Shown here: piece by piece, positions 158 to 15,093 of the stretch
Layout: every line of letters starts with the position of its first letter
Position numbering within the stretch: the stretch's first letter is position 1
Origin: an uncultured bacterium
Lineage (GTDB): Bacteria > CAZSTA01
NCBI GenBank assembly: GCA_964609495.1
Contig: CAZSTA010000078.1
Coordinates: 1 to 15,093 of the forward strand
Direction of reading: 5' to 3'
Length of the DNA: 15,093 nt
Made by a program: the position numbers and the translations under genes
Notes under the pieces: model-generated
Database searches by the model: none
What the model saw: only the letters and a program-made list of their open reading frames with translations
What the model was told of the DNA's origin: nothing

Positions 158-213
158 AGTCGTAGATGCGAGGAAGTGTGTAGTTTGTTGTATTTGGGGA
201 TGAGGAGGCGAGT

Positions 214-417: not shown

Positions 418-624
418 GTGGCAGTAACAACCTCAATGGCTCCTTCAGGGTTAGCAGAGGTTCTCGACCGTATCCTGGATAAGGGTATCGTACTCGATGT
501 TTGGGTTAGAGTCTCTCTACTCGGCCTGGAGATCCTTGCTATTGAAGCAAGGGTAGTTCTTGCCGGTGTCGAGACCTACCTGAAGTATGCTGAAGCGGTT
601 GGCTTAACAGCTCCAGCAGCCTAA
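418..624 (+). CDS. gvpA: Major gas vesicle structural protein GvpA
   Basis: GTG start with SD AGGGGGTG 7 nt upstream. The protein contains [52 protein letters not shown], the canonical GvpA core. An ATG at 436 is an alternative start. Confidence 0.95.
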
Positions 625-636
625 AGCTCACCAGGT

Positions 637-663
637 GGGACTTGCCAAGGTCCCCTTATTTAT
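637..663 (+). terminator. GC-rich hairpin (GGGAC..GTCCC) immediately after the gvpA stop, followed by the T-rich TTATTTAT. A candidate leaky terminator or attenuator that could set the gvpA:downstream transcript ratio.
   Basis: The inverted repeat is read directly. Partial termination after gvpA is well known in other gvp operons (established knowledge). Confidence 0.4.
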
Positions 664-699
664 AAGTGCACCTTGCCAAGTATTCCCTATCTGCTAGTT

Positions 700-727
700 G
701 ATGAACATTCATCATGAATGCTTCATC
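700..727 (+). promoter_or_regulatory. Extended hairpin GATGAA-CATTCA-tca-TGAATG-c-TTCATC (a ~12-bp stem) overlapping the RBS region of the next gene.
   Basis: Near-perfect inverted repeat read from sequence. It could sequester the AGGGAG SD at 732-737 and so control translation. Its function is inferred. Confidence 0.35.
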
Positions 728-741
728 AAAAGGGAGAAAAA

Positions 742-1449
742 ATGGAGGACTTAGTTTTAGACCTTATCACCTATTATGGGGATAAAGTCTCAACGGTAGA
801 GGAACTAATCACTACTGCTTATTGTGCTATATTAAACTCGGACGAAAATTTTAATGGACTTGATAGAGAGAGGGAAACTCTGAAGATTAGATTATGCGAA
901 ATGCTGGCTAAAAATTGCTCCTTCCGAAGAAAAGATTTCAATAGTTTGATGGAGAAGATCCTTGCCGATTCTGAGACAAAAAGGGTAGCGATTCAGGAAG
1001 AGCAAAATCAGGTTAAGAAGGCTCTGGGGGAATATTTAGCCCAACAGAAAGAGCTAGCAACCTATCTAAAAGGAGAGCTAATAGGATTTGTACAGGGAAA
1101 CTCAGATAGGGGGCATGTTAAGGCAATAATAAATGAAATTAAGAATATGTATAGGGATAGGGGGGAACAAATTTTTGCCCTCCTACGTAATCTTCAGTTG
1201 TATATAGAGACTTTTCAGAAGGAACAGGAGAAGATAAATCATAAATTGCAGCGGCTTGTAGAGAGAGGTGAATCTTTAAAAATAGAAGACCTAAGACAGC
1301 TTGAGGCGGCTAAAAGTCGCGAGGAGAGAAAGGCTGAAAGAAAGCTAAGGCGGGAGGAAGTGGAAGGACTATTAGCTCATTTCAAGCAGGAACGATGGGA
1401 AAGAAGTTTTTATAGGAAAAATAAGAAATCAAAGAAAGGAGGAGAATAA
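742..1449 (+). CDS. Coiled-coil protein with a GvpC-like repeat unit; a probable gas-vesicle-associated structural or scaffold protein.
   Basis: ATG 742 is preceded by AGGGAG SD; the ORF-track start at 718 lacks an SD. Charged, heptad-rich sequence. The segment DFNSLMEKILADSETKRVAIQEEQNQVKKAL matches the repeat unit of the next ORF. Stop TAA 1447-1449 overlaps the next ATG (ATAATGA). Confidence 0.6.
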   Translation: MEDLVLDLITYYGDKVSTVEELITTAYCAILNSDENFNGLDRERETLKIRLCEMLAKNCSFRRKDFNSLMEKILADSETKRVAIQEEQNQVKKALGEYLAQQKELATYLKGELIGFVQGNSDRGHVKAIINEIKNMYRDRGEQIFALLRNLQLYIETFQKEQEKINHKLQRLVERGESLKIEDLRQLEAAKSREERKAERKLRREEVEGLLAHFKQERWERSFYRKNKKSKKGGE

Positions 1450-2504
1450 TGACTATCGGTCCTGGGATGAGAGAACTTGTGCAGGAAATTACCTCTTCCC
1501 ATAAGGAAAGAACAGAAACAGTTAAGGGAATAAGGGAGGAGGCAAAGCAAATGAGGGAAGAAGCAATGGATTTAATTAGAGATTTTCAAACTACCCGAAG
1601 TAATGAGAGCGTTCAGTTAAAGGAGGAGTTAACAGAGGGAAAAAGAGAAAGGAGCTCTCTTGTTAAAGGGATGCTAGAGGATTTTCAGAATTCAAGGGGA
1701 GAAGAAGCTACTCAAATGCGTAAAGATTTAGCTCAGGGAAGTAGCGAACGTCGTTCTGAAGTTGAGAAATTACAAGAGGATGCCCGGCAAAGCATAAAAG
1801 ATTTTCACGCCCAGCGTAAGGAAGTGGGTACTCAGTTGAGAAAGGATCTTTCTACAAGCACAGCCAATAGAAGATCTGAAGTAAAAGCACTGCTGAGTGA
1901 TGCTCAGGAAATGATAGGGGGATTCCAAAGTTCAAGGGGAGAGGCGAGTTCTGAATTGAGGAAGGAACTTTCTCAGAGCGTATCCAATAACAGGGCTGAG
2001 GTGGAAGACCTCAGGAGAAACGCTAAAGCGTTAGTAAAAGATTTTAATAACACCCGTATAGAGACAGGCAAAGAATTGAAGAATGAACTGACTAAGGATA
2101 AAGCTGAGAGATTATCTGAAGTTAGAAAAATGCGGGATGATTTTCGTAGGATACGCTCGGAAGTGAGAGCAGACTTAAAAGAGGTAGCGGTAGCCTGGCA
2201 GGGATTAACAAAACCTGTAGAAGTAAAGGAAGTTGAAGTAGAAGCTCCTCCCAAAGAAGCAGAGGTTCCTATAGAAGAGGAAACTCCAACGGTAGAAGAA
2301 GTAGTTTCCGAGGAAGGAGAACGGGATTTTGAGTCAGAACTTTTAGCAATTGTCAATCGACATCCCGAAGGAATAACCCTTGTGGAATCAGCTGAGAGAT
2401 TAGGTGTCGCTTCTGTCGTTCTTGGACGAGCCTCTAAGAGTCTCTTGGACAGTGGGAAGATTCGTAAGGAAGATAGATTCTACTTCCCGGTAACAAGCGA
2501 GTAG
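1449..2504 (+). CDS. GvpC-like repeat protein with at least five ~40-aa repeats (DFxxxRxExxxxLRKxLxxxxxxRRSEVxxL) followed by an acidic linker and a C-terminal winged-helix (BirA/MarR-like) domain.
   Basis: Repeats are visible in the translation: DFQTTRSNESVQLKEEL.., DFQNSRGEEATQMRKDL.., DFHAQRKEVGTQLRKDL.., GFQSSRGEASSELRKEL.., DFNNTRIETGKELKNEL... The C-terminus LLAIVNRHPEGITLVESAERLGVASVVLGRASKSLLDSGKIRKEDRFYF fits a winged-HTH pattern. Position directly downstream of gvpA matches where gvpC sits in cyanobacteria and haloarchaea. No direct sequence identity to known GvpC is claimed. Confidence 0.7.
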   Translation: MTIGPGMRELVQEITSSHKERTETVKGIREEAKQMREEAMDLIRDFQTTRSNESVQLKEELTEGKRERSSLVKGMLEDFQNSRGEEATQMRKDLAQGSSERRSEVEKLQEDARQSIKDFHAQRKEVGTQLRKDLSTSTANRRSEVKALLSDAQEMIGGFQSSRGEASSELRKELSQSVSNNRAEVEDLRRNAKALVKDFNNTRIETGKELKNELTKDKAERLSEVRKMRDDFRRIRSEVRADLKEVAVAWQGLTKPVEVKEVEVEAPPKEAEVPIEEETPTVEEVVSEEGERDFESELLAIVNRHPEGITLVESAERLGVASVVLGRASKSLLDSGKIRKEDRFYFPVTSE

Positions 2505-2511
2505 TGATATT

Positions 2512-2913
2512 ATGAAAAGTGAAGCTCTAACAAAAGTAGGAACAGGACGTCAAATTAAAACTGGTCTTGACCTTGCAAGGAGTCAGAGTCAGAGGATAAG
2601 AACTGCCAACTCCCTTTCCCAACCGAAGGAAACTTTTGAATATCTTCAGCACCTAACCGACAGGGATGTGAAAAAGGAACTGCAGAGGGAGAAGATACGT
2701 TTTGCTACTCAGGATGCAGCAGTAGAAAAAGTAAGACGTAGAATTAGTGAATTAAGAGAAAATTTGGCGCGGACTATCAATAGAAACAGAGCTCTTACTG
2801 AATTAAGGCATGAGCTACAAAAGGCCAGATGGGAGGGTAGGGACCCAGTACCGGCGGAGAAAGAAGAGTCAAACCCTGGTCAAAAATTAAATCAGATAGA
2901 AGTGCGATATTAA
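2512..2913 (+). CDS. Hypothetical basic coiled-coil protein of 133 aa.
   Basis: Open frame with a weak RBS. Arg/Lys/Glu-rich helical composition and no recognisable family. Co-oriented within the cluster. Confidence 0.45.
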   Translation: MKSEALTKVGTGRQIKTGLDLARSQSQRIRTANSLSQPKETFEYLQHLTDRDVKKELQREKIRFATQDAAVEKVRRRISELRENLARTINRNRALTELRHELQKARWEGRDPVPAEKEESNPGQKLNQIEVRY

Positions 2914-3138
2914 TATTCGCTCATATTGGAGTAGCGTGCTTAGCTAAAGATGTCTTTATTTCATAATCACCCTCCCCTAAACCCCTCCCATCGAGGGAGG
3001 GGAAAATGGGAAGACAGTTCTATCTGGATGTCCCCTCTCCCCTCAGTGGGAGAGGGATAGGGTGAGGGTGAAAATTATTTCTTTCGCTCATTAGATCAGT
3101 CTAGCGCACCTTATGCAAATATGAGCGTTAATATTAGA
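2911..3138. repeat. A 228-bp MITE/REP-like structured element. Terminal inverted repeats TAATATTCGCTCATATT (2911-2927) and its reverse complement AATATGAGCGTTAATATTA (3118-3136) enclose an inner imperfect inverted repeat (2967-2984 / 3054-3071) and two GC-rich hairpins: CCCCTCCC-atcga-GGGAGGGG (2982-3002) and CCCTCTCCC-ctcagt-GGGAGAGGG (3033-3056).
   Basis: Nested inverted repeats read directly. The GC-rich poly-C/poly-G tracts stand out in an AT-rich intergenic region between ORF-133 and gvpN. A third partial copy of TTCGCTCAT lies at 3084-3092. Confidence 0.5.
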
Positions 3139-3152
3139 AGAGGAGGAGGATT

Positions 3153-4055
3153 ATGCAGGAAGAGCCCACAGTGCTTACTGCCCAACCAAGTGCTGATTTT
3201 GTAGAGACACCTTATATAAAGGAGCTAACAAGTCGGGCTATCGACTATATCAGAGCTGGTTTTCCCGTACACTTCAGCGGCCCAGCAGGGGTAGGAAAAA
3301 CTACATTAGCTTTACATATGGCTGCTAAGCTGGGCCGCCCGATTATATTAATCGGTGGAGACCACGAATTTAATAGTTCTGATCTAGTTGGTGGACTCTA
3401 CGGCTATCGTAGAAGATATACAAAAGACAATTTTATCCGCTCAGTTCTCAAGACTGATGAGAGTATGACTTCCCATTGGATAGACAATCGTCTCACGGTT
3501 GCATGTCAACGTGGACTTACCCTTATCTATGATGAGTTTACCAGATCACGACCAGAGGCAAATAACGTGTTACTCTCTATATTAGAAGAGAAGCTCCTTC
3601 CCCTGCCTGCCGCTAGAGGAGGAGAGAATTACTTAAGGGTACATCCCGATTTTGCAGCTATATTTACCTCTAATCCTGAAGAGTATGCTGGAGTTTACAA
3701 TAGCCAAGATGCCCTACGTGACCGTATGATAGCTATAGAACTGGGTAATTTTGATGAGGAAACAGAAGTTGCTATTACCCAGGCAAAATCTAAGCTTCCC
3801 TTAGAAGACGCCCAGCGGATCGTTAATCTGGTGAGAAAAGTTAGAGAGGTTAAATCGAACAAGCTTACCCCTACCGTAAGAGCATGCATTATGATGGGAA
3901 AGGTATTGAAGTTAAAGGGTGCATCAGCTTTCAGTTATGACCATACTTTTAAGCAGATCTGTCAGGATATCCTTATGCCTGAGATTCCCAAGGAGGAGAG
4001 AGAAAAAATAAGAGAGGTGATAGAGGATGCTCTGCTACTTAAAGGAGGATCATAG
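3153..4055 (+). CDS. gvpN: Gas vesicle AAA+ ATPase GvpN
   Basis: Strong SD AGGAGGAGGA precedes the start. Walker A FSGPAGVGKTTLALHMAAKLGRP and Walker B LIYDEF are present. Size (300 aa) and motif spacing are typical of GvpN/CbbQ-type AAA_5 proteins. Confidence 0.9.
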   Translation: MQEEPTVLTAQPSADFVETPYIKELTSRAIDYIRAGFPVHFSGPAGVGKTTLALHMAAKLGRPIILIGGDHEFNSSDLVGGLYGYRRRYTKDNFIRSVLKTDESMTSHWIDNRLTVACQRGLTLIYDEFTRSRPEANNVLLSILEEKLLPLPAARGGENYLRVHPDFAAIFTSNPEEYAGVYNSQDALRDRMIAIELGNFDEETEVAITQAKSKLPLEDAQRIVNLVRKVREVKSNKLTPTVRACIMMGKVLKLKGASAFSYDHTFKQICQDILMPEIPKEEREKIREVIEDALLLKGGS

Positions 4056-4203
4056 TTTCGCAGTTTTTGAAGATACTAAACTGAAAACTCCGTTTCCAAG
4101 TGGAATTAAGTCTATACTCAGTAGATCGCAATGCTAATATTTTATTCACTAAAGGATACATTTTGTGGTTAAAAATCGTCGAACTTTTTTAGAAAAGGGC
4201 TTG

Positions 4204-4236
4204 TTTTGTCCAGATTTTGCAGGAAAAAGGACAAAA
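4204..4236. promoter_or_regulatory. Perfect 8-bp inverted repeat TTTTGTCC-N17-GGACAAAA in the 374-bp AT-rich region upstream of hsp20/cdc48. The spacer contains TTTGCAGGA, the same 9-mer that lies inside the flank-repeat promoter core (20-28 and 14100-14108). A small hairpin TTTTGC-gga-GCAAAA lies at 4290-4304.
   Basis: Read directly from sequence. The operator-like geometry suggests binding by a dimeric HTH regulator. Function is inferred. Confidence 0.35.
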
Positions 4237-4429
4237 ATTATCCACCTTTGTGATCTAATGATACTTCGTATTAGCTCTGCATAACCGTATTTTGCGGAGC
4301 AAAACCAAATATTTTGGGATAGAGGAGGATATGTGTAACAAATTCTGCAAAAATTCTTATTAATAGTAGATTTTTGTATTTATGCTAAGCATAATTGAAA
4401 AATCTGTGAAAGTATAGAGGTGATAGTAT

Positions 4430-4927
4430 ATGGCTGAAAAGGAAGAGAAGGATAGAATTGAGATAGACTTTTTTGGGGGACTCTTTAAAGAGATTGGGAA
4501 CCTTATTGATCGTGCCTCCAAGATGGGGGAGGAAGGATTTGAAGAAACAGGGGAGATAAAATTCCCCAAGGGAGGTAAGGCAGTATATGGTATTAGTGTA
4601 AGGACTCTAGCAGGTAAGCCAGTAATAGAGAGATTTGGGAATGTGAAGGAGACCTCTAAAGGTCCAGTGGTGGAAGAGGTTAGAGAGCCAATCGTTGATG
4701 TTTTTGACGAAAAAGATCATATCCTTGTTATTGCTGAATTGCCCGGTGTATCGGAAGAGGATATAAAAATCGAAGTTTCTGGAGATGTTTTTAACCTTAC
4801 CGCCTCTAGTAAAGGTAGGAAATATGCTAAGGAGCTCCTTCTGCCGGCTAAAGTAAAAGCAGAGCCCCTTAAGAGTTCCTACCGGAATGGAATTTTAGAA
4901 ATTACATTGGAAAAGATAGAGAGCTAG
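4430..4927 (+). CDS. Hsp20/alpha-crystallin-domain small heat-shock protein (GvpH-like)
   Basis: SD GAGGTGA precedes the start. The alpha-crystallin-domain signature VDVFDEKDHILVIAELPGVSEEDIKIEV...YRNGILEITLEK is present. Haloarchaeal GvpH is Hsp20-family (established knowledge). Confidence 0.85.
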   Translation: MAEKEEKDRIEIDFFGGLFKEIGNLIDRASKMGEEGFEETGEIKFPKGGKAVYGISVRTLAGKPVIERFGNVKETSKGPVVEEVREPIVDVFDEKDHILVIAELPGVSEEDIKIEVSGDVFNLTASSKGRKYAKELLLPAKVKAEPLKSSYRNGILEITLEKIES

Positions 4928-5013
4928 TGTCAACTTACCCCTACTGATTGTAACACGAAGTATAGACTGAATCAGGAGAGGTTTCCGTGCCTGATTTAAG
5001 AGGAGGTAAATGA

Positions 5014-7194
5014 ATGGCTATGCGGGCAACCAGGGATGATGTAAAAGCATTAAACCTTCGTGTTGCTGAGGCAAAACCTAAAGATGTTGGAAGGGGGATT
5101 ATACGGATAGACCCCCAGGACTTTGAGAAGATAGGGGTAGATGTAGGAGATATTATTCAAATTGAGGGAAAGAGAAGGACCGTAGCTAAGGTTATGCCCG
5201 CTTATCCTGAAGACCGTGGCAAGTCCATTATCCAGATGGATGGAATTTTACGGAGCAATGCCCAGATCTCTCTTGATGAAAAGGTAACTGTTCAAAAGAT
5301 TAGAAGTTCCCCGGCAGATAAGATAGTAATAAGTCCGTTGACTCTGACAAGATTAAGCCGGGAGAGTGACACTAGATATATCGGCACCCTCCTGGATGGA
5401 TTGCCCCTAATAGAGGGGGATATTATTAGAGCCAATCTATTTGGGACTCGTAGTCAGGATTTTACAGTTCTTAGTACTATCCCAAAGGGGGTAGTGCTGA
5501 TTAACCCAGGAACTATAATTGAAGTGAAAAAAAAGGAAGAGATAGAGGCTAAAGGGTCCAAAATTTCTTACGAAGATATTGGGGGGTTAAGTAAAGAATT
5601 ACAGAAGGTTAGAGAAATGATCGAGCTTCCTCTGAAATACCCTGAGATTTTTGAGCGTTTGGGGATAGACCCTCCAAAGGGAGTATTACTCTATGGACCT
5701 CCTGGATGTGGTAAGACGTTAATTGCCCGTGCTGTAGCGAATGAGACCTCGGCCTATTTTACCCATATTACTGGTCCAGAGATTATGGGGAAATATTATG
5801 GTGAGAGTGAGAGCCGACTGAGAATGGTTTTTGCAAAAGCACAAACTAATACACCTGCTATTATATTCATTGATGAAATCGATGCTATTGCCCCCAAAAG
5901 AGAGGAAATGGGAGGAGAAAAACAGGTAGAGAGGAGAGTAGTTGCTCAGCTGCTCTCTCTAATGGACGGATTAGAGTCACGTGGTAATGTAATCGTTATT
6001 GCTGCAACGAATATTCCTAATTCTATCGATCCTGCTTTAAGAAGACCAGGGAGATTTGATAGGGAAATTGAGATCAGTATCCCTGACCAAAGGGGACGCC
6101 TGGAGATTTTGCAGATTCATACCCGTGGTATGCCTCTAGCTCAGGATGTAGATTTAGCTCAGGATATAGATTTAGAAAAGTTATCCCAGATCACCCATGG
6201 TTTTGTTGGTGCTGATTTGGAAGCGTTATGTCGTGAGGCAGCGATGAATGTATTGAGGAGGATAATGCCGGATATTGATTTTCAATGGTGTGGGATTCCC
6301 TATGAGACTCTATTACAGCTCGAAGTAACAATGGCTGATTTTGGAGAGGCTTTAAAGGAAGTAGAACCTTCAGCTATCAGAGAGGTCTTTATTGAGATTC
6401 CAAATGTGAAATGGGAAGATGTAGGGGGTTTGGGATATATAAAGCAAAAGTTAATGGAAGCTGTAGAATGGCCATCTAAATATTCTATTCTATTTGAGAA
6501 GGCAAAGATAAGACATCCGAAGGGAATTCTCTTTTCTGGACCTCCAGGTACAGGTAAAACACTAGTGGCTAAAGCATTGGCTAATGAAAGTGGGGTTAAT
6601 TTTATCTCAGTTAAAGGTCCTGAATTGATGAGCAAATATATAGGGGAATCAGAAAGAGGGGTAAGAGAGGTGTTTAGGAAGGCAAAACAGGCCAGTCCCT
6701 GTATTATCTTCTTCGATGAATTTGAATCGTTGGTCCCTGAGAGGGGGCCCTCCTCGGATTCTCAGGTTACAGAGAGGGTGATTAGTCAATTCCTTACCGA
6801 GCTCGATGGACTGGAAGAACTGAAAGGTGTACTAGTTCTAGCTGCTACTAATAGAAGAGACCTTATTGATCCTGCTATTTTAAGACCTGGAAGGTTTGAT
6901 TTTATTCTGGGATTTCCACTCCCTGATGAAAGCACAAGGGAAGAGATCTTCAAGGTTCATACGAGAGGAAAACCTCTGGCTCCTGATGTTAGTCTAAAAG
7001 GACTAGCTAGGAAGATGGATGATATGTCCGGTGCAGATATAGAAGCCATCTGTCGAGAAGCTTCTATGATAGCAATTAGAGAAGCTATTAGAGATGAATG
7101 TATGGATAATTTTCGGATCTCTCAAAAGTATTTTGATATGGCTATTGAATGGTTGAAGAGGCAGAAAGGAGAAATGGATGTCTTACCAGGGTAG
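5014..7194 (+). CDS. CDC48/VCP-like AAA+ ATPase with a CDC48_N domain and two AAA domains.
   Basis: The N-domain reads [27 protein letters not shown]. Walker A motifs are GPPGCGKT (D1) and GPPGTGKT (D2); Walker B motifs are IIFIDEID and IIFFDEFE. The protein is 726 aa, with SD AGGAGGT 6 nt upstream. The first 9 codons and RBS are shared with gvpJ. Confidence 0.9.
6139..6174 (+). repeat. In-frame 18-nt tandem duplication (gctcaggatGtagattta / gctcaggatAtagattta) encoding [12 protein letters not shown] in the D1-D2 linker of the CDC48-like gene.
   Basis: Seen directly; one mismatch between copies. Confidence 0.8.
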
Positions 7195-7924
7195 ATATTT
7201 CTATGGGATTATAGAGGAACCACAGTTTAAGAAATTTGAATTTTCTGGAGTGGGAGGGGAAGAGGTATATACAACTAGTTACCAGAATCTTTCCGCAGTT
7301 GTAAGTAATATTGAAGTTGGAGAGATAGATCCTATTAGAAAGAATGTACTTGCCCATACAGTAGTTCAGGATGAGGTTCTAAAAATTTATGATCTTCTTC
7401 CTATGGGCTTTGGAATGATAACCAATAGTGGGGAAGAGGTTATGAAGTTATTAGAGAAAAATTATCAGACGATTCTAAAAGAACTAAACCGACTTAAGGG
7501 TAAGATAGAGGGCGAGGTAAAAATCTTCTGGGACGAGGAGGCTATAATGAGAGAACTTCAGAACGAAAATCCGAAGTTCTCCAAGCTTAAAGCCAAGATA
7601 AGAGAAGCTTCATCTCCCGTTGAAGCGCAGAATCTACTTGCGGAAGCTGGTAGGTTGATAGAGCATATTGCTATGGAATGGAAGACTAAATATGCCGAGC
7701 GTGCCTATAATATCCTTAAAGACCTATCTATCGAGGCTAAGCTAAATGAGCCTTTTGGAGTTAAGAATATCCTAAATGCTTCTTTTCTGCTGGAAAGGAC
7801 TATGGAGAATAAATTTAAAGAAGAAATCTACCGATTAGATAGTGAGTATCAGGATAGACTAGATTTCAAATATGTAGGTCCCTTACCACCCTATAATTTC
7901 GTCAAAGTAAAACTGGAGCTGTAA
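7178..7924 (+). CDS. gvpF: Gas vesicle protein GvpF/GvpL family
   Basis: [10 protein letters not shown]...[17 protein letters not shown]...[26 protein letters not shown] matches the GvpF/L family pattern. The start overlaps the cdc48 3' end by 17 nt. Confidence 0.85.
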
Positions 7925-7925
7925 G

Positions 7926-8165
7926 ATGCTTGGACTCTCACTTTTATATGATATTTTTATAGGTGTTCCCTTTACCCTTGGAGTGAAAATACTGGAGAAA
8001 CTGAGGGATGAGATAGATAAGGAGCGCCTTATAACGGAAGATTCGATCAAGAAGAGGCTTCAGCAGCTACAACTATTGTTACAGGATGGAGAGATAAGTG
8101 AGGAAGAGTATGAAGAGTTAGAAGCTAAACTTATTGAAAGACTAAGAGCGGTAAAGGGAATATAG
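7926..8165 (+). CDS. gvpG: Gas vesicle protein GvpG
   Basis: A 79-aa protein with a hydrophobic N-terminus LLYDIFIGVPFTLGVKILEKL and the C-terminal EISEEEYEELEAKLIERL motif typical of GvpG. Confidence 0.8.
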   Translation: MLGLSLLYDIFIGVPFTLGVKILEKLRDEIDKERLITEDSIKKRLQQLQLLLQDGEISEEEYEELEAKLIERLRAVKGI

Positions 8166-8251
8166 TCAATGACCCCGCCCATGAAGGGCGAGGCTTGAGG
8201 GATCAAGCCTACGTTGACTAAGGGTAAGAGTTTCCGCCGACTAGTCTTTTT
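8163..8251 (+). promoter_or_regulatory. Structured intergenic element. A 7-bp outer inverted repeat TAGTCAA/TTGACTA (8163-8169 / 8214-8220) encloses two hairpins, CGCCC-atgaa-GGGCG (8176-8190) and GCTTGA-ggga-TCAAGC (8193-8208). The palindrome GACTAGTC followed by T5 lies at 8239-8251.
   Basis: Inverted repeats read directly. Same architecture as the 2911-3138 element (an outer inverted repeat around two GC hairpins). Probable RNA-stability or attenuator element between gvpG and gvpJ. Confidence 0.35.
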
Positions 8252-8274
8252 ATGAAAGTTAAGGAGGTAAATAA

Positions 8275-8652
8275 ATGGCTATGCAGGCAACCAGGGATGG
8301 ATCTTCTACCCTGGTGGATGTAATTGATCGCGTATTGGATAAAGGGCTTGTTATTAATGCTGATATCTGTGTTTCAGTAGCCGGGGTCGAACTTTTAGGG
8401 ATAAAGGTGAGGGCGGCTTTAGCTTCTTTCGAGACGGCAGCCAAGTATGGGTTAGAATTTCCTAGTGGAACAAATTATGAAACAGCTGCCTGGAAAGAGG
8501 TAAAGGTAGCTAAAGAGGAGTGTCCACAATGTGGAAAGAGGGTTCCTGCCGAAGAACTTATGAATGAAGGCTGTCCATGGTGTGGATGGATGAGTGCAAA
8601 GGCAAAGAAAGCTAAGCCTAAGCTAGCCCCTGAAATATCGGTAGAGGGATAG
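8275..8652 (+). CDS. gvpJ: GvpJ/GvpA-family protein with a C-terminal zinc-ribbon extension.
   Basis: N-terminus MAMQATRDGSSTLVDVIDRVLDKGLVINADICVSVAGVELLGIKVRAALASFETAAKYGL is the GvpA/J core. C-terminus CPQCGKRVPAEELMNEGCPWCGW carries four Cys arranged as CxxC...CxxC. Confidence 0.85.
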   Translation: MAMQATRDGSSTLVDVIDRVLDKGLVINADICVSVAGVELLGIKVRAALASFETAAKYGLEFPSGTNYETAAWKEVKVAKEECPQCGKRVPAEELMNEGCPWCGWMSAKAKKAKPKLAPEISVEG

Positions 8653-8655
8653 AAT

Positions 8656-9012
8656 ATGCCAGAGGATAAGAAAAATAGATTCAAAGGTTTATTGGGGCTT
8701 GATCCTACTTTAGGGGTAGGAGGCAAACTTTTAGACTATGTAGAAGAAGCACATGAAAAAGAAAAGACATTAAATAGTGATTACTATGCCTTTTGCCCAA
8801 AATGCGGTAAGAGACAGGTTAAGGTAAGTTTAATTGAAAATGGATGCTTCCTCTGTGGCTGGAAAGGAAAAGAAGAGGAGATAGAGAAGGCAAAACCAGG
8901 AAACGTAGAAGGAACTTCAGGATATAAAAGTATCTGCCCTAATTGCGATGCTTCTGTCATTACGGAGGAATTTCTGGAAAATGGGTGCTGGAAGTGTGGA
9001 TATAAAAAATGA
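8656..9012 (+). CDS. Small protein carrying two zinc-ribbon modules.
   Basis: The two modules are CPKCGKRQVKVSLIENGCFLCGW and CPNCDASVITEEFLENGCWKCGY. This is the same 'ENGCxxCGW' module as at the GvpJ C-terminus. SD GAGGGA precedes the start. Confidence 0.6.
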   Translation: MPEDKKNRFKGLLGLDPTLGVGGKLLDYVEEAHEKEKTLNSDYYAFCPKCGKRQVKVSLIENGCFLCGWKGKEEEIEKAKPGNVEGTSGYKSICPNCDASVITEEFLENGCWKCGYKK

Positions 9013-9454
9013 GGGTAATTTGACTCAATTTCTTGAAAATCTTGATGAAAAGAGCCGGGCTTTACTCTGGTATCTGTGGTGGCATAGGCATGCCAATATA
9101 TCTGAATTAAGGGAAGTTATAGATGTTTCAAGTGATTTTGAGGTTTTACATAGGTTGAAAGAAGTCATAAATGAGAAAGCCAAGAAGCTCTTAGGTAAGT
9201 TGATAGTAAACTTTGAGCCGTCGAAAATAGATCCTTATACTGGAGAAAAGGTCTTTTTTAGCTGGTGGCTTCTGGATGAGGAAGATAGTACTCTTTTAGG
9301 TGAGAATAAGCAACTGGTTGATATATTCAATGAGAAAGATAATATTACTATAATTGCCCAACTACCTGCTACAGTAGATTTTACCTCTCCAGAAATACAA
9401 TTTAAGAATAGTATATTGAAAATAAAACTAAAGAAGGTAGAGAAGAATGACTGA
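8981..9454 (+). CDS. Degenerate alpha-crystallin (Hsp20-like) paralog with a W-rich N-terminal domain. The start is uncertain: the ORF is open from 8948, ATG 8981 is chosen because GAGGAA lies 9 nt upstream, and it overlaps the previous gene out of frame.
   Basis: The C-terminal half, VDIFNEKDNITIIAQLPATVDFTSPEIQFKNSILKIKLKK, parallels the VDVFDEKDHILVIAELPGV...NGILEITLEK of the 4430 gene. The N-terminal half, LWYLWWHRHANISELREVIDV.., is unassigned. Confidence 0.5.
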   Translation: MGAGSVDIKNEGNLTQFLENLDEKSRALLWYLWWHRHANISELREVIDVSSDFEVLHRLKEVINEKAKKLLGKLIVNFEPSKIDPYTGEKVFFSWWLLDEEDSTLLGENKQLVDIFNEKDNITIIAQLPATVDFTSPEIQFKNSILKIKLKKVEKND

Positions 9455-9929
9455 AAAAGACAAAGATGAAGAAAAAATAGGTGGAGTAACTCAGGGAGTC
9501 CTTCACGGATTAGGGAGAATTATCCCTGGCTTTGAAGAAATTATAAAAGGTTTAGAAAAATCTACCGCTTTCCAGGAAAGATTAAAAGTGGCTAATGAAG
9601 AGATAGAAAAGAGGTTAAAAAAAGCCCCAACAAGGGGTAGGAATAATGTCATTCCACCTGAGAATACACTAAAGGTGAACCAAAACGCTGAGAGAGAATT
9701 GTTGATAGATATATTTGATGAAGGAAGTTATCTAAGGATAATTGCTGAGATGCCAGGTGTGGACGAAAAAGAGATAAAAATTGAAATAAAGGATAACCTA
9801 CTTATACTTTCTACCCCATCTGCTAGGTATAAGTATTACAGAGAGATAGAGCTACCCTGTTTGGTAAAAAAGGAATTTAACTTAGTTTACAAGAATGGTA
9901 TATTAGAGATCAAATTGGAGAAGAGATAA
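9447..9929 (+). CDS. Hsp20/alpha-crystallin-domain protein (second GvpH-like paralog)
   Basis: IDIFDEGSYLRIIAEMPGVDEKEIKIEIKDNLLILSTP...YKNGILEIKLEK is present. ATG 9447 overlaps the upstream stop at 9452-9454. Confidence 0.8.
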   Translation: MTEKDKDEEKIGGVTQGVLHGLGRIIPGFEEIIKGLEKSTAFQERLKVANEEIEKRLKKAPTRGRNNVIPPENTLKVNQNAERELLIDIFDEGSYLRIIAEMPGVDEKEIKIEIKDNLLILSTPSARYKYYREIELPCLVKKEFNLVYKNGILEIKLEKR

Positions 9930-9932
9930 TAA

Positions 9933-10256
9933 ATGGCTATTGATATTGATGCAGATAACCTCAAACAGGGTGTTTTGGGTTTGGTAATCGCCCTTGTGGA
10001 AATTATTAGGGATGCCCTGAAGATTCAAGCATTTAAAAGGGTGGAAAGCGGCATTCTTACCGAGGAAGAATGTGAGAGGTTAGGAGAAGCACTTATGGAT
10101 TTAGATATTGCAATCGAGGAGATAAAGGAAGAGCAGGGGATTACAGAATCTGTTCAGGCTATAAGGGATGGATTAGATGAGATTGTCGATGATGTAGTAG
10201 ATAGAATGGTTAACCCTGAAAGATGGAAAGAAGAGGCGAAAGAAAAAGGAATATAA
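9933..10256 (+). CDS. gvpK: Gas vesicle protein GvpK
   Basis: LGLVIALVEIIRDALKIQAFKRVESGILTEEECERLGEALMDLD matches the GvpK family pattern. Confidence 0.85.
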   Translation: MAIDIDADNLKQGVLGLVIALVEIIRDALKIQAFKRVESGILTEEECERLGEALMDLDIAIEEIKEEQGITESVQAIRDGLDEIVDDVVDRMVNPERWKEEAKEKGI

Positions 10257-10265
10257 GGGATGGAT

Positions 10266-11435
10266 ATGGAAGAGATATTTTATGCTGTGTTGGCTTTACA
10301 TATAGCTGGTAAACCTGTTAATAGAGAGAATATAAAAGCTATCCTTAAAGCTGTAGGGACACCGATCGATGAGAAGGCGCTTGATGCTATGGTACTCTTT
10401 GTTGAGACTTTGGAAGCTGCTCGTAGGGAGAGACAGAGGACTATAGATCCCAGAATCATCAAATTTCTAACAGATGAGCTAGAGCGACAGAAGGTAAAGA
10501 CAGAGCGACTGGAAGCCCTTTTAGATGAACTAACCAAATCTGTTACTCTATCAGAGGCTTATGAGTTTATACCTTCTGAGCGAGATACGGCTGAGGCAGA
10601 AGAAATAACTATTGAAGAAACTGAAAGTATCCCCCGGTATGAGGGAAGATATGTGTACGGAGTGGCTATGGATGGGAGAGAGGTGAATCTTGGTCCGATA
10701 GGAATAGATGGTAATGAGGTCTATACTATACCTTATAGGGGCCTTTCAGTTATTGTGCATAACTGTCCTCCTGAACCATACCAATCTAACGATGATGAAA
10801 TAGTAAAAAACTGGATAAGAACCCATCAGAATGTCCTTGATGTGGCAAAGGAACAATTCGGTACTATTATACCTATGGGCTTTGATATCATACTACAACC
10901 TGATGATGCTACTTCTCCCGATCAAGTTGTAAGAGATTGGCTTAAGGAAGATTATGATAGGCTCTTGACTGTGATGGAAAAGATAGAGGGTAGGGATGAG
11001 TACGGAGTACAGATTTTCTATGATCCAAAGGTGATAGGTGAGCTTATTGCCAAAAATAATGGGGAGCTCGAAAAATTAAAGGAGGAAATAGCTACCAAAT
11101 CGCCAGGGCTTGCCTATATGTATAAACAGAAGATGGAAAAGCTAATAAAGGAAGAAATGGAAAGGCTTGCTGAAGAATGGTTTAGAGATTTCTATAGTAG
11201 GATTAAAAGGCATTGTGATGATATTGTTATAGAGAAAACTAAAAAAGTTGAGAAGGATAAGATAATGCTAATTAATCCCTCCTGTCTTGTAGTCAAAGAG
11301 AATGTTGAGAGCTTAGGTGAAGAGCTAGAAAAGATCAATAGTATAGAAGGATTCTCTGTCCGTTTTACCGGTCCATGGCCTCCATACAGCTTTGTCTCCA
11401 AGCCAACGATAACAACCTCTAATATAGGAGGATAA
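10266..11435 (+). CDS. gvpL: GvpL/GvpF-family protein with an N-terminal domain (~60 aa) resembling the ribosomal stalk P1/P2 (L12e) dimerisation domain. ATG 10260 is an alternative start.
   Basis: The GvpF/L core is RYVYGVAMDG..VYTIPYRGLSVIVHN...NVLDVAKEQFGTIIPMGFDII. The N-terminus MEEIFYAVLALHIAGKPVNRENIKAILKAVGTPIDEKALDAMVLFVETLEAA aligns by eye with archaeal P1, (M)EYIYAALLLHSAGKEI.EENIKAVLEAAG..VDE.R.KALVAAL. The AGGGA SD sits 5 nt before ATG 10266. Confidence 0.8.
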   Translation: MEEIFYAVLALHIAGKPVNRENIKAILKAVGTPIDEKALDAMVLFVETLEAARRERQRTIDPRIIKFLTDELERQKVKTERLEALLDELTKSVTLSEAYEFIPSERDTAEAEEITIEETESIPRYEGRYVYGVAMDGREVNLGPIGIDGNEVYTIPYRGLSVIVHNCPPEPYQSNDDEIVKNWIRTHQNVLDVAKEQFGTIIPMGFDIILQPDDATSPDQVVRDWLKEDYDRLLTVMEKIEGRDEYGVQIFYDPKVIGELIAKNNGELEKLKEEIATKSPGLAYMYKQKMEKLIKEEMERLAEEWFRDFYSRIKRHCDDIVIEKTKKVEKDKIMLINPSCLVVKENVESLGEELEKINSIEGFSVRFTGPWPPYSFVSKPTITTSNIGG

Positions 11436-11525
11436 AATTGATGCTACATAATTGTCAAGGGACTGGAAAAGTCAGCCGTTCCCATAAGCTAATCTCTGGT
11501 ATCTGTGCGGAAGGATAGATAAATA

Positions 11526-12617
11526 ATGGAACCTACTAGAGATACACATGCTACATTAGTAGACCTCTTGGATAGAATTCTAGATAAAGGCTTAATACTT
11601 AATGCGGATCTAATTATCCATATAGCTGGCATCCCTCTTTTGGGAGTTAACCTAAAGGCTTGCCTTGCTGGAATGGAAACGATGCTAAAGTATGGTATCT
11701 GGCAAGACTGGGATGAGGCACAGAGGGTGATTGCCACTGAAGAAGAGAGGAAGAAGAAAAAAGTTCCCTTAGCTCCACAGGAAGATGTCTTCCTAAAGAT
11801 ATTTGCCTCCCTGTGGTACAGTAAAGGTATCTATCATACCCGGAGACCGGGGCATCTATACATCACCGATAGAAGGATATTCTTATTTAGAAAGGAACCA
11901 GCTGAAGTACTATTTCATTGTATGTATAAGGAGATAAAAGGAATCAGTACTGAAAGAAAGGCAAATATTACTGGCAAAGAGACGGATTATCTCTATCTAT
12001 GGCTTAACTCAGGAGAGATCGTTAAGTTGCATCCGACAGATGCTCAGCTTGTTAGAGAGACAATAGAAGAAAGAATGAAATTACTGGGGCTAGAGTTGAA
12101 GAAAGATATCCCCCTTCCTATACTCGATGAGGTAGCAATAAAGTTTTTATCTGAGGAAGAAGAAATTATCCATTCGGGAAAGATATCTTATCTAGTGGCT
12201 GAATCAAGACCGGGGGGTATTACCACCGAGGTATGGAAGCCGGGACATTTATATCTGACTGATAGGAGGTTAGTCTGGTGGTACGATTTCGATGGCAGGA
12301 TTGCTTCTGAATTACCTCTTGAGAAAATTCTGGGAGTTGAAATAAAAAGAAAAGATTTGGGTGATATGTTAAAGAATAAATCTGTTTTAGATTTGGCTTA
12401 TAAGAATGGTAGTAATAGAATTGCCTCTTTCTCTAGTAGTACGGAGGGACTAAATGAGTGGGAAAAAATAATAGGTGAGGTTATGATAGAATACGACAAG
12501 ACAGAAGAGTGCCCCAGGTGTGGCAGAAGGGCACCTATAGATAAGCTGCTTAAAGAAGGCTGTTCAATCTGTGGCTGGGTAAGCCCCAGGCTTAGAAAAA
12601 AGGAGATAGAAGCTTAA
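11526..12617 (+). CDS. Fusion protein combining an N-terminal GvpA/J/M-family domain, two GRAM/PH-like repeats and a C-terminal zinc ribbon.
   Basis: N-terminus [57 protein letters not shown] is the GvpA-family core. The two repeats are ..RRPGHLYITDRRIFLF.. and ..WKPGHLYLTDRRLVWWY.., matching the GRAM/bPH 'G.LYLT..RL.F' signature. C-terminus is CPRCGRRAPIDKLLKEGCSICGW. Confidence 0.8.
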   Translation: MEPTRDTHATLVDLLDRILDKGLILNADLIIHIAGIPLLGVNLKACLAGMETMLKYGIWQDWDEAQRVIATEEERKKKKVPLAPQEDVFLKIFASLWYSKGIYHTRRPGHLYITDRRIFLFRKEPAEVLFHCMYKEIKGISTERKANITGKETDYLYLWLNSGEIVKLHPTDAQLVRETIEERMKLLGLELKKDIPLPILDEVAIKFLSEEEEIIHSGKISYLVAESRPGGITTEVWKPGHLYLTDRRLVWWYDFDGRIASELPLEKILGVEIKRKDLGDMLKNKSVLDLAYKNGSNRIASFSSSTEGLNEWEKIIGEVMIEYDKTEECPRCGRRAPIDKLLKEGCSICGWVSPRLRKKEIEA

Positions 12618-12875
12618 ATGGATATTGATGAAATAATTAGAAAAACCCAAGAAACTTTTACTAGACTTACCAAGATACCTATCGATGGAATTACTGGTAT
12701 ATCAAAGACTGACCAGGGGTGGATGGTAGCACTAGAAGCACTGGAGAGAAGAGCCATACCTGATACTATGGATATACTAGGACTTTATGAGGTTCGCCTC
12801 GACAATGATGGGAATCTTCTTAATTTTGAGAGAAAGAAACTCCGTAAACGCGGTGAAACAGAGGGGGGAGAGTAG
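12618..12875 (+). CDS. gvpO: Gas vesicle protein GvpO
   Basis: DQGWMVALEALERRAIPDTMDILGLYEVRLDNDGNLLNFERKKLRKRG matches the GvpO signature (GW.v.vE..E....PDT.d.L..Y.v.lD.dG.L....R...Y.RG). ATG overlaps the upstream stop (TAAATG). Confidence 0.8.
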   Translation: MDIDEIIRKTQETFTRLTKIPIDGITGISKTDQGWMVALEALERRAIPDTMDILGLYEVRLDNDGNLLNFERKKLRKRGETEGGE

Positions 12876-12876
12876 A

Positions 12877-13110
12877 ATGAGTGCATGGAATAAATGTCCC
12901 AGTTGTGGAATCACTGTCAGTGGGATTGCCGATTACTGTCCTAATTGTGGAGAACCCTGGACTATAGAATGTCAAAATTGCGGAATAACTTGGCGATTCT
13001 GGGAAAATTATAAATTTTGTCCCAATTGTGGAGCTAAGGTAGAAAAGCGTGGTGTCACCAGAGGAAAGCAGAAGGTAGGACCAGGGGTTGGAAAACCAAA
13101 GGTTATTTAA
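12877..13110 (+). CDS. Double zinc-ribbon protein with four CxxCG pairs.
   Basis: MSAWNKCPSCG..YCPNCGEPWTIECQNCG..FCPNCGAKV. ATG 12877 is one nt after the gvpO stop, with a G-rich SD. The ORF-track start at 12787 would overlap gvpO and is unlikely. Confidence 0.6.
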   Translation: MSAWNKCPSCGITVSGIADYCPNCGEPWTIECQNCGITWRFWENYKFCPNCGAKVEKRGVTRGKQKVGPGVGKPKVI

Positions 13111-13147
13111 CCCAAGCTCCGCATTTTAGGAACGCATCACAATTTGT

Positions 13148-13416
13148 GGCTCTTTGAGGGAAAGTGTGAAGGGAAGTTAAGCACATTCGAGGAGGATATG
13201 TTGTCGGAAATTATCAAAGTTTCGATATCCGTATCCTCTCTGTTTGATGAGCTTAATCTCGTTATTGATCCCCTCGGCTAAACCATTGTTTATCCTCTCT
13301 ATAAAGTAATTCAAACTCTCCTCCCACCAAGAGCGAAGAGTATTTACGAATTTGAATAAAGTTCTTACCGCTTGCTCTACCTTATGACACCAAGAGGAGA
13401 AAAATCTCTCTTCGCT
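13148..13416 (-). mobile_element. Remnant of an ISL3-family insertion sequence: the 3' (C-terminal) transposase fragment on the minus strand (13177-13416) plus its terminal inverted repeat reading GGCTCTTTGAGGGAAAGTGTGAAGG inward from 13148. The other end is absent.
   Basis: Minus-strand translation gives SWWEESLNYFIERINNGLAEGINNEIKLIKQRGYGYRNFDNFRQHILLECA*. I recognise the 'EG.NNKIK.IKR.AYGYRNF.NFR.RIL' tail as ISL3 (DDE_Tnp_ISL3) transposases. Upstream frames are broken by stops. The GGCTCTT terminus matches my recollection of ISL3 inverted repeats. No reverse-complement inverted-repeat copy is found at higher coordinates. Confidence 0.6.
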
Positions 13417-13480
13417 TTATCCCATCCCTTGATCTTCTCAAAGATAGGGCGAAATTCCTCCTTCAAGAAATGAGTTCTAA

Positions 13481-13693
13481 GCAAATAGATTTAGTTCTTC
13501 ATATATTCCTAAGGAGGAGATAACCGATCTAGCGGGAGATATGTCCTTAGAAGAGAGATTAGAATTATCTGAGAAAAAGATAATCGAGGGCGCTCTAAAA
13601 GAGGTGGGAGGAAATCAAAGCCGGGCTGCCAAGATGTTAGGTATATCCCGATATAAATTGCGTTATCGAATGCAGAAGTATGATCTACTATAG
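13481..13693 (+). pseudogene. C-terminal fragment (Fis-type HTH_8) of a sigma-54-dependent NtrC-family transcriptional activator.
   Basis: ..MSLEERLELSEKKIIEGALKEVGGNQSRAAKMLGISRYKLRYRMQKYDLL* matches the C-terminal HTH of NtrC/NifA-type activators. No AAA sigma-54 domain is found upstream in any frame. ATG 13541 has a GGGAG motif immediately upstream, so a 50-aa stand-alone product is possible but unlikely. Confidence 0.55.
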
Positions 13694-13759
13694 TAGGTTG
13701 TGTGTTTTTACACTATATGTGGGAAATCACACACATATTATAATCCATTACGTGAAGTT

Positions 13760-13786
13760 CCCCGAGGCTTGCCTCGGGGTTTTCTT
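13760..13786 (+). terminator. Rho-independent terminator: a 9-bp perfect GC stem CCCCGAGGC-tt-GCCTCGGGG followed by TTTTCTT.
   Basis: Read directly; the T-run follows on the plus strand. A second hairpin ATATGTG..CACATAT lies at 13715-13738. Confidence 0.75.
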
Positions 13787-14080
13787 GGCATGATTATATA
13801 ACCTAGCTATCCTCTCGATATGTTTCCCTAATGGTGCAGGAGAGTATCATCTATTACCATAAAACCTTCCTTAGTGTTCACTCCCCTTCTTGCTAAAGAA
13901 GACATCTCTGAAGAAAGATTGCTTTTGTTACCACTACTGAGGAAAATTCTACTATGGATATCACTTCTTACTTCCTCTTCCTCACATCTCCCCCATCTGT
14001 GTTAATTTCCATAAATGTATTTAATATCACTTTTCTATTTCAAGGCATACATCTTTAAGTGATAGTTATATTGATTTTGC

Positions 14081-14213
14081 AGAAACTTCCCCTCGGTACT
14101 TTGCAGGATATATAATATGATATAATATTAACATTTTCTATCGTGTTGCCTTTGCAATATAACAATCGCAGAGGAACTCTTTTGATTAAAGGTATGATAT
14201 TTGCTCTTTATAG
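14081..14213 (+). repeat. Right copy of the flank direct repeat. It carries the same extended -10 TGATATAAT at 14118-14126.
   Basis: See the 1-157 entry. Confidence 0.85.
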
Positions 14214-14335
14214 ATGTTAGACGACTCAAGTACTACCTAAGTGCATATATCTACTATTTTAACTTCTGATATCTAAAAGCAGGGAATATTTCTCCCCTTA
14301 AAGTTAGGATATAGTGTTAAGGAGGGGCAGATGTA

Positions 14336-14467
14336 ATGGTTCCAGAGAAGCTTTATAAGATCGGAGAAGTTGTGAGGTACAGTAGTTTTTACAGGCGAGT
14401 CATTCATAATTATACCCAGATCGGGTTGATCAGATCATCTTTATCAGCCCAGCGGGATAAATTTTAG
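14336..14467 (+). CDS. Tiny (43 aa) MerR-superfamily/HTH_17-like DNA-binding ORF immediately downstream of the right repeat copy; possibly truncated.
   Basis: MVPEKLYKIGEVVRYSSFYRRVIHNYTQIGLIRSSLSAQRDKF. The IGE(V/L)..(pause)..R.I..Y..IG pattern resembles MerR/Xis-type HTH. AGGAGGGG SD lies at 14320-14327. Its arrangement after the repeat mirrors the 214-417 gene after the left repeat. Confidence 0.4.
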   Translation: MVPEKLYKIGEVVRYSSFYRRVIHNYTQIGLIRSSLSAQRDKF

Positions 14468-14472
14468 ATGAG

Positions 14473-14673
14473 ATGCTCGCTTTTTTTGATCTTTGTGCTG
14501 TGGACTACATAATCTTTCCTTTTCGCAGTAAGGGGGTGTTAGATCGAGTTAGAGCTGCTTTGCGATCCAGCCGACTGATGAGAGAATTACGAAGACGCAA
14601 TCAGGAACTTGTTATTTTGAAGGGAATATCTGATATAGCTAATCGATCTTCAAGTTTAGGTGAGCTATTATAG
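14473..14673 (+). pseudogene. Short ORF whose C-terminal half resembles the coiled-coil leader into a GAF domain (ELRRRNQELVILKGISDIANRSSSLGELL*). Probable truncated N-terminus of a GAF-containing sensor or sigma-54 activator.
   Basis: Pattern recognition only. The motif 'L..EIS.AL.SSLDL.ELL' is common at GAF-domain starts in NifA/FhlA-type regulators and histidine kinases. The frame stops after 66 aa and downstream frames are broken. Confidence 0.25.
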
Positions 14674-15015
14674 AGATCACATTGCGATTCTGCACTAAAC
14701 CCTAATAATGAATTAGTGTTGGAAATAAATATTTTCAAGTTCGCTTATAGTGAGTGCTTTCTACTTTCAGATCTTTGCATTTAGCTACGGAGAGAGCTTC
14801 TAAAAGGCAGTTATAATGTGATTCAATATTTGGAAATCTTGAAGTAAATGGGGGAGCATAAAGATTAAGGAATCGCAGTCCAATTATATCAGTCAGTTCA
14901 GTCATCCAAATTGTAAGAAGTTGAATCGCTATTTTTCTCTCTATAAGCTAATCATAGACCTATTGTTTCCAAGATTATGTGACATCTATAAATATAAGGA
15001 AAGGGGGGAAAGAAA

Positions 15016-15093
15016 ATGGCAAATGCCCAGATTCTAGCTGTTGAAGATGAGAAAATCGTAGCTGAGAACATACGAGACAGGTTGAAAAGTTTG
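15016..15093 (+). CDS. Response-regulator receiver domain at its 5' end, truncated by the window edge.
   Basis: MANAQILAVEDEKIVAENIRDRLKSL shows the typical 'ILVVEDE' receiver start. AAGGGGGG SD lies 7 nt upstream. Confidence 0.6.
   Translation, partial: MANAQILAVEDEKIVAENIRDRLKSL

Follow-up and report, generated by a model that had tools for sequence, protein, structure and literature searches.

Besides the shell protein GvpA, gas vesicle (gvp) gene clusters encode minor GvpA paralogues that are essential for vesicles, i.e., GvpM in Halobacterium salinarum and GvpS in Bacillus megaterium. GvpM from H. salinarum consists of 84 amino acids, the last 25 of which contact GvpF, GvpH, and GvpL and are dispensable, and GvpH is a documented partner of GvpM in haloarchaea (PMC8716928). 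GvpS, GvpK, and GvpJ from B. megaterium have been proposed to act in vesicle seeding and at the bicone tips, and GvpS tolerates fusions (PMC11445434). GvpJ, GvpM, and GvpS are regarded as putative nucleation factors (PMC9994262), and vesicle nucleation as well as the location of the essential GvpJ and GvpM/S are stated open questions (Huber et al., 2023; Iburg et al., 2024). Here we analyze a stretch of 15,093 nucleotides from an uncultured bacterium (contig CAZSTA010000078.1, positions 1 to 15,093), the whole of which is called the window in the following. Its gvp operon contains an open reading frame (ORF) at positions 11526-12617, encoding a fusion protein in which a GvpM-type core is followed by two pleckstrin homology (PH) modules and a predicted zinc ribbon.

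The fusion protein shares the core type and the slot in the gene cluster with GvpM and GvpS and, like H. salinarum GvpM, it possesses a C-terminal region beyond the core. However, the tail of haloarchaeal GvpM is short and unstructured, whereas the protein described here is 363 amino acids long and carries two folded PH modules and a ribbon. GvpJ of the same cluster also combines a GvpA-family core with a CPxCG...GCxxCGW ribbon, but it comprises only 125 amino acids and lacks PH modules, and GvpJ is the best-scoring model for its core (98.6 bits). With regard to GvpH/Hsp20 proteins of gvp clusters, sister clusters fuse the same PH module to an Hsp20 domain, which is absent from the protein described here.

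Domain organization of the fusion protein

The features of the protein, followed by related ribbons and the operon in which it is encoded, are the following.

11526..12617, + strand: complete ORF of the fusion protein (GvpM-type core, PH1, PH2, and zinc ribbon), 363 amino acids plus stop
11526..11726, + strand: GvpA-family core, GvpM-like, residues 1-67, including the start of the YG-W-DWD-R helix (Pfam, NCBIfam, alignment to PDB structures, DSSP)
11697..11777, + strand: helix and basic linker from the core to PH1, residues 58-84, with W62, D63, and R67 invariant (alignment, AlphaFold2)
11778..12095, + strand: PH-fold module 1 (PH1), GRAM/bPH-like, residues 85-190, seven strands and a C-terminal helix
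12096..12164, + strand: acidic inter-module linker with a short helix, residues 191-213 (AlphaFold2, charge; a remnant persists in the PH-less loci L078 and L080)
12165..12497, + strand: PH-fold module 2 (PH2), Vps36-GLUE-like, residues 214-324, duplicate of module 1 (hhalign, Vps36 matches, AlphaFold2)
12498..12593, + strand: predicted C4 zinc ribbon, CPxCG-x12-GCxxCGW, residues 325-356 (cysteine conservation)
8515..8601, + strand: homologous ribbon at the C-terminus of GvpJ, GvpJ residues 81-109 (hidden Markov model (HMM) of the ribbon of the fusion family, E-value 4.7e-16)
8794..9000, + strand: two homologous ribbons in the protein encoded at 8656-9012, residues 47-69 and 94-115 (same HMM, 3.4e-10 and 5.4e-8)
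418..13110, + strand: co-directional gvp operon

The original prediction, made from the DNA letters alone, had recognized a GvpA-family core in the first ~65 residues, and this assignment is confirmed by the Pfam family Gas_vesicle (PF00741), which matches residues 10-48 with 53.6 bits (E-value 2.4e-14; cut-off 25) and is found in 43 of 43 aligned homologues. The core motif, ending in AGMETMLKYG, extends over residues 11-57. Solved structures of GvpA (8gbs and 7r1c) match residues 7-57, and DSSP assignment on the AlphaFold2 model gives the order α-β-β-α (H11-21, E28-33, E36-42, and H43-55). Among the NCBIfam models, GvpM scores highest with 90.7 bits over the complete profile (positions 1-67 of 67), followed by GvpJ with 45.6 and GvpA with 36. 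Since 90.7 bits is below the curated cut-off of 109 for NF046091 (halo_gas_GvpM), a model specific for halophiles, the protein is called GvpM-type and is not filed in that family. Judged by its sequence, it represents the minor GvpA paralogue of the GvpM/GvpS type in this cluster.

Two copies of a PGHLY(I/L)TDRR(I/L) signature in the tail had been read by the original prediction as GRAM- or bacterial PH-type modules, and both copies are present, PGHLYITDRRI at residues 108-118 and PGHLYLTDRRL at residues 239-249. Module 1 passes the Pfam cut-offs for GRAM (PF02893; 27.0 versus 23.6) and bPH_3 (PF14470; 24.8 versus 23), while module 2 reaches only a sub-threshold score of 19.2 against Vps36-GLUE (PF11605; cut-off 24.1), i.e., it resembles the GLUE domain of Vps36 without being a member of that family. 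When the 43 homologues are considered, 35 match GLUE (E≤0.01), 31 GRAM, 15 bPH_3, and 13 pICln/Voldacs, and fewer match PH_TFIIH (6), PH (5), CheF (3), or BBS5 (2). PH1 and PH2 align to each other with an E-value of 8e-7 in BLASTP and with a probability of 98.2% (E-value 4.7e-14) in hhalign; by this similarity they are duplicates of each other, far beyond chance.

Structure prediction, which had been named as a check together with the search for orthologous fusions, bears the reading out. The AlphaFold2 model of the whole protein, built with 43 sequences, has a predicted local distance difference test (pLDDT) value of 79 and displays two PH-fold modules, each with seven strands and a C-terminal helix, and then a zinc knuckle. 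If residues 76-363 are modelled alone (103 sequences), pLDDT rises to 91.3, with a predicted template modelling score (pTM) of 0.64. The modules share the seven-stranded sandwich with C-terminal helix, as well as the hairpin signature G-(H)LY-(L)T--R-(L)-F, with the GRAM/GLUE/bPH branch of the PH superfold (PF02893, PF11605, and PF14470). In contrast to these relatives, their subfamily is restricted to gvp clusters and has no evident basic pocket for lipids. Both modules are near neutral, with family mean charges of +0.7 and -2.1, and each contains one conserved basic residue in the β1-β2 region (W-R/K-P-G).

A tandem of PH domains is also known from BBS5, FACT (Spt16/Pob3), Rtt106, and archaeal CheF. 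However, the modules are only 10-20% identical to any solved PH domain, and no known tandem of PH domains can be superposed on the two modules as one rigid unit (template modelling score ~0.3). Foldseek searches with both models matched BBS5, FACT, Rtt106, FARP, and CheF; a known tandem-PH arrangement was rejected, as only the single folds match (template modelling score ~0.2-0.35, large root-mean-square deviation). An exhaustive phmmer search with residues 76-322 against 1.84 billion representative proteins gave 120 matches, all of which are Gvp fusions or fragments thereof except for four spurious large proteins. The PH subfamily of the fusion protein is thus essentially confined to gvp clusters, and the same search found no donor family for the PH module outside of them.

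The C-terminal CPRCG..EGCSICGW had been noticed in the original prediction as well, and its four cysteines, C329, C332, C346, and C349 (CPRC...CSIC, residues 329-349), are invariant or at least 90% conserved. AlphaFold2 places two short strands there (E326-328 and E335-337), and no specific Pfam ribbon family matches above threshold. The C-terminus is described as a predicted C4 zinc ribbon with two CxxC knuckles. For the homologous ribbon of GvpJ and for the two-ribbon protein, no description was found in the literature searched.

The ORF is a single uninterrupted frame of 363 codons plus stop, with a Shine-Dalgarno-like GGAAGGA 12 nucleotides upstream. Its TAA stop codon abuts the ATG of gvpO, to which it is translationally coupled. 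The architecture recurs on hundreds of independent contigs (NCBI, JGI, ENA, and Logan), including isolate genomes, and the family alignment shows no variation at W62, D63, R67, and E86 of the junction. Mean pairwise identities within the family amount to 71% for the core, 54% for PH1, 43% for PH2, and 59% for the ribbon, and all parts of the protein are therefore under purifying selection. Because of the open frame, the recurrent architecture, the conserved junction, and the selection on all domains, an assembly chimera, a frameshift, or a read-through of gvpM into an unrelated gene is practically excluded.

Distribution and genomic context of the fusion

Among 5.8 billion clustered proteins, 654 homologues of the fusion protein were found at E≤1e-3. 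The best 120 of these 654 are nearly full length, with 330-390 amino acids and 46-74% identity, and where homologues carry any name at all, they are called "gas vesicle protein" or are mislabelled as "ribosomal protein L37E". A profile of Desulfobacterota variants, used for a second search, retrieved 1864 matches at E≤1e-20, some of which may be plain GvpJ or GvpM. The 80 best loci in species-representative genomes were annotated with the proteins of the window and with HMMs of the four domains. According to a tally of record titles, ~19 of these loci come from archaeal and ~61 from bacterial genomes, and orthologous fusions do therefore occur in other gvp clusters of both domains. Archaeal carriers belong to the anaerobic methanotrophic (ANME) group ANME-1/Methanophagales, Methanotrichaceae, Methanoregulaceae, Methanoperedens, Bathyarchaeia, and Altiarchaeota. 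Bacterial carriers belong to Dehalococcoidia, Anaerolineae, Atribacterota, Desulfobacterota, Nitrospirota, Actinomycetota, Firmicutes, Planctomycetota including Scalindua, Verrucomicrobiota, and Bacteroidota. The nearest genome-derived relatives are encoded by metagenome-assembled genomes (MAGs) of an uncultured Clostridia member (67% identity) and a Halobacteriota member (62%), and by ANME-1 (56%).

Isolates carrying the gene are Clostridium sp. ZS2-4 (WP_268070106.1), Desulfosporosinus sp. SRJS8, and Desulfoluna butyratoxydans, and the fusion is also present in M. soehngenii in the arrangement G-J-fusion-ZnZn-x-K-L. The gvp cluster of Desulfobacterium vacuolatum DSM 3385 makes vesicles in Escherichia coli (PMC10344784); neither this strain nor Methanothrix thermoacetophila (Mthe_0071) has a named entry among the best 120 matches of the second search. 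In Streptomyces prasinus (locus L074, 2717-4024), a protein of 435 amino acids carries just one PH module, and its Gvp core is preceded by an N-terminal extension of ~120 residues, and two MAGs of Actinomycetota (L053 and L056) encode Gvp-PH1-PH2 proteins of ~316 amino acids. From these variants it follows that the family reaches the aerobic actinomycetes.

In the annotated loci, the gene for the fusion is always situated inside the gvp cluster, usually directly 3' of gvpK-gvpL (43 loci) or of gvpJ (13 loci). None of these loci contains a second GvpM-like gene in addition to the fusion, which therefore fills the GvpM/S slot. GvpJ with a zinc ribbon is encoded in nearly every locus as well (66 ORFs over the 80 loci). 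The architecture Gvp-PH1-PH2-Zn occurs 36 times, Gvp-PH1 20 times, Gvp-PH1-PH2 11 times, Gvp-PH1-Zn 10 times, and Gvp-PH2-Zn once, and the deletions in the family alignment are clean and of module size. The tail is modular, with none, one, or two PH modules and an optional ribbon. In two loci with short GvpMs (L078 5015-5359 and L080 9977-10351), the tails keep a remnant of the PH1-PH2 linker (LGLE..P..D..IAK.LLSEEE), and the PH modules have therefore been lost there secondarily by deletion. Together, the modular variants and the linker remnant indicate that the PH tail is accessory and plays an add-on role.

The same PH subfamily, recognizable by W-R/K-x-G-x-LYLT-x-x-R-L, forms the N-terminus of proteins of 300-450 amino acids which end in an Hsp20 domain, and it is also encountered as stand-alone proteins of 124-160 amino acids in ~30 of the 80 loci. 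In one locus (L016), a stand-alone PH protein is encoded between a double ArsA/Get3-like ATPase and Hsp70, with a PH-Hsp20 gene just downstream. Adjacency of PH-Hsp20 genes to the gene for the fusion was considered as evidence and discarded, as they belong to the same cluster but are usually located 2-8 kb downstream and are not immediate neighbors.

Possible functions of the tail

For the fusion protein, the results above establish its identity and fold, the duplication of its PH module, the homology of its ribbon, its conserved slot, its modularity, and its association with chaperone genes. For its tail, we propose that it forms a cytoplasmic protein-docking arm, i.e., an adaptor, on the GvpM-type core, a reading to which we assign slightly less than an even chance. 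The core would join an early seeding complex with GvpJ, GvpK, and GvpL, or it would occupy a few wall positions such as the vesicle tips, and the 33-kDa PH-PH-Zn tail would point into the cytoplasm. In the cryo-electron microscopy structure of GvpA, the hairpin and helix α1 line the gas side and helix α2 folds back on the hairpin; subunits are spaced 12 Å apart within ribs with a pitch of 48.8 Å, and the C-terminal tail past α2 is flexible (PMC9994262). The tail of the fusion protein should face the cytoplasm because the GvpA chain leaves helix α2 on the non-luminal side. From the published spacings, a footprint of ~1.2 x 4.9 nm, or ~5.9 nm2, is calculated for a shell subunit. Since the tail greatly exceeds this width, the protein would have to be sub-stoichiometric and would fit best at the highly curved tip.

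The tail would recruit or retain assembly and chaperone factors, the putative partners being GvpF/L, Hsp20/GvpH-like proteins, and AAA+ ATPases, and it might be linked to GvpJ via the shared ribbon system. It would thereby replace the short hydrophilic C-terminal tail of haloarchaeal GvpM, which contacts GvpF, GvpH, and GvpL, and represent an elaborated version of it. Binding of proteins fits the near-neutral charge of the PH modules better than binding of lipids. A wider scheme, which is possible but on the doubtful side, would be that gvp clusters of anaerobes possess an unrecognized network of PH modules and zinc ribbons that organizes the nucleation complex at the tip and couples it to chaperones. 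Its proposed members would be PH modules on GvpM, on Hsp20/GvpH-like chaperones, and on free proteins, and ribbons on GvpJ, GvpM, and two-ribbon proteins.

Several observations weigh against the adaptor reading. The Gvp core of the fusion protein is modelled at pLDDT values of only 43-62, and because of this low confidence its insertion into the wall is assumed from homology. The geometry between the domains of the tail is only moderately defined (pTM 0.64). Three clusters of Dehalococcoidia (L078-L080) have the gene order of the window and a GvpM of only 103-124 amino acids without PH modules, and the tail is therefore not universally required. Furthermore, none of the three Hsp20-like proteins of the window carries a PH module, so that pairing between PH modules of the fusion and of small heat shock proteins cannot apply there.

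Alternatively, though this seems unlikely to us, the tail might be a cis-acting chaperone or solubility module, in which the PH modules shield the hydrophobic hairpin of the core, or incoming GvpA or GvpJ, by β-sheet augmentation until assembly. A model for such an activity is pICln, a PH-fold chaperone that holds Sm proteins, and the PH-Hsp20 and stand-alone PH proteins of the sister clusters would then be trans-acting versions. However, dozens of other PH domains resemble the modules at least as closely as pICln does, and AlphaFold2 does not dock the core confidently onto either PH module. A cis-acting chaperone overlaps heavily with the adaptor, and the two are hard to part in silico.

Somewhat less probable still is a ring-forming nucleator or cap, in which PH modules and ribbon would oligomerize to set the first turn of the cone apex and the starting geometry of the vesicle. 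Some bacterial PH domains form rings, module 1 matches bPH_3 above its cut-off, and GvpJ, GvpM, and GvpS have been proposed as nucleation or tip components; a bulky tail would presumably be best placed at high curvature, and the ribbons common to GvpJ, GvpM, and the two-ribbon protein could cross-link a seed. Nevertheless, the computational tools used gave no sign of oligomerization, and a precise geometric template is difficult to reconcile with the variable number of PH modules (0-2) in close relatives.

A tether function, in which the PH/GRAM modules would bind membrane lipids and hold vesicles, nascent or mature, at the cytoplasmic membrane, is suggested by the family-level likeness to GRAM, GLUE, and BBS5 domains, among which are several phosphoinositide binders, but this is the most improbable of the functions considered. 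It fits poorly with modules that are near neutral, that contain a single conserved basic residue each, and whose conserved G-HLY-T--R represents the structural GRAM hairpin and not a basic pocket. Members of the PH superfold mostly bind proteins, gas vesicles are lipid-free cytoplasmic bodies, and, to our knowledge, these bacteria and archaea do not typically contain phosphoinositides.

In the literature accessible to full-text search, no paper was found that connects gas vesicle proteins with zinc ribbons or with PH, GRAM, or pleckstrin domains, in line with the original prediction, whose author knew of no GvpA-family protein with PH/GRAM-like domains. In papers on carrier organisms, the gene is entered under no other name than gvpA or gvpM (PMC10470525; PMC7325909). 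The sequences are already in public databases, and it is the architecture and the surrounding PH/ribbon system that appear to be undescribed. Systematic differences from the model systems of cyanobacteria, haloarchaea, and Bacillus set apart the gvp clusters that are most common in anoxic settings, i.e., in methanogens, ANME, Atribacterota, Dehalococcoidia, and sulfate reducers. With its folded 33-kDa tail, the fusion protein offers a built-in label for cryo-electron tomography or immunogold on bicones and tips, and the tail provides soluble, purifiable domains as bait for direct partners. If the network of PH modules and ribbons exists, GvpM-PH-PH-Zn would mark the long-sought site of nucleation with a bulky natural label. 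For the engineering of vesicles as acoustic reporters it is useful that the C-terminus of GvpM tolerates large fusions in nature.

Operon and neighboring genes of the window

Within the window, gvpA, N, F, G, J, K, L, and O are all located on the same strand as the gene for the fusion. The operon begins with gvpA (418-624), three coiled-coil genes, a GvpN-type AAA gene (3153-4055), and hsp20, and continues with a CDC48-type double AAA+ gene (5014-7194), gvpF, gvpG, gvpJ-Zn (8275-8652), and the two-ribbon gene (8656-9012). Two Hsp20-like genes, gvpK, and gvpL (10260-11435) precede the gene for the fusion, which is followed by gvpO (12618-12875) and a zinc ribbon gene. The fusion is thus the third GvpA-family gene of the cluster, beside gvpA and gvpJ and near gvpK and gvpL, and its product is the only PH-bearing protein in the window.

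Three Hsp20-like genes and the double AAA+ gene, whose product includes a CDC48 N-domain, are located inside the operon (4430-7194 and 8948-9929). One of the Hsp20-like genes (8948-9454) has no Pfam match of its own. Sister clusters additionally encode a double ArsA/Get3-like ATPase and Hsp70 (L016 11647-16032). The chaperone complement is heavy relative to that of model gvp clusters.

Directly after gvpA, three consecutive genes (718-2913) encode charged, coiled-coil-like proteins of 243, 351, and 133 amino acids, for which no Pfam family matches above threshold. The middle one, with 351 amino acids, displays an internal repeat-like pattern R/K-x-E-L/V-...-R-S-E-V. These proteins may be functional substitutes for GvpC.

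GvpL (10260-11435) has an N-terminal extension of ~125 amino acids, in which residues 5-50 (nucleotides 10272-10409) match the N-terminal dimerization domain of P1/aL12 (PDB 3a1y_A, E-value 1.4e-6). P1/aL12 is the archaeal ribosomal stalk protein. Stalk-type N-domains are also present on GvpL of four other loci (L031, L039, L078, and L080), and it is odd that relatives sharing this archaeal-stalk-like domain are labelled as bacterial MAGs. Going by sequence similarity, the N-domain could attach GvpL to the stalk of the ribosome, so that Gvp proteins would be captured during their translation, or its role could be no more than dimerization of GvpL.

At the 3' end of the operon, the ORF listed at 12787-13110 overlaps gvpO by 89 nucleotides. 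Its homologues have 62-85 amino acids, and translation probably begins at the ATG at 12877 (MSAWNK...), directly past the stop codon of gvpO. The product of 12877-13110 contains three CxxC pairs and is a double zinc ribbon, with matches to the Pfam families DZR and Zn_Ribbon_1. Further downstream, only 50 amino acids of a Fis-type helix-turn-helix, the C-terminal end of a σ54 activator, remain open at 13541-13693, and a short fragment at 14473-14673 resembles the start of a sensor protein. Past position 13000, the GC skew falls to about 0, and both fragments are probably gene remnants at the end of the operon.

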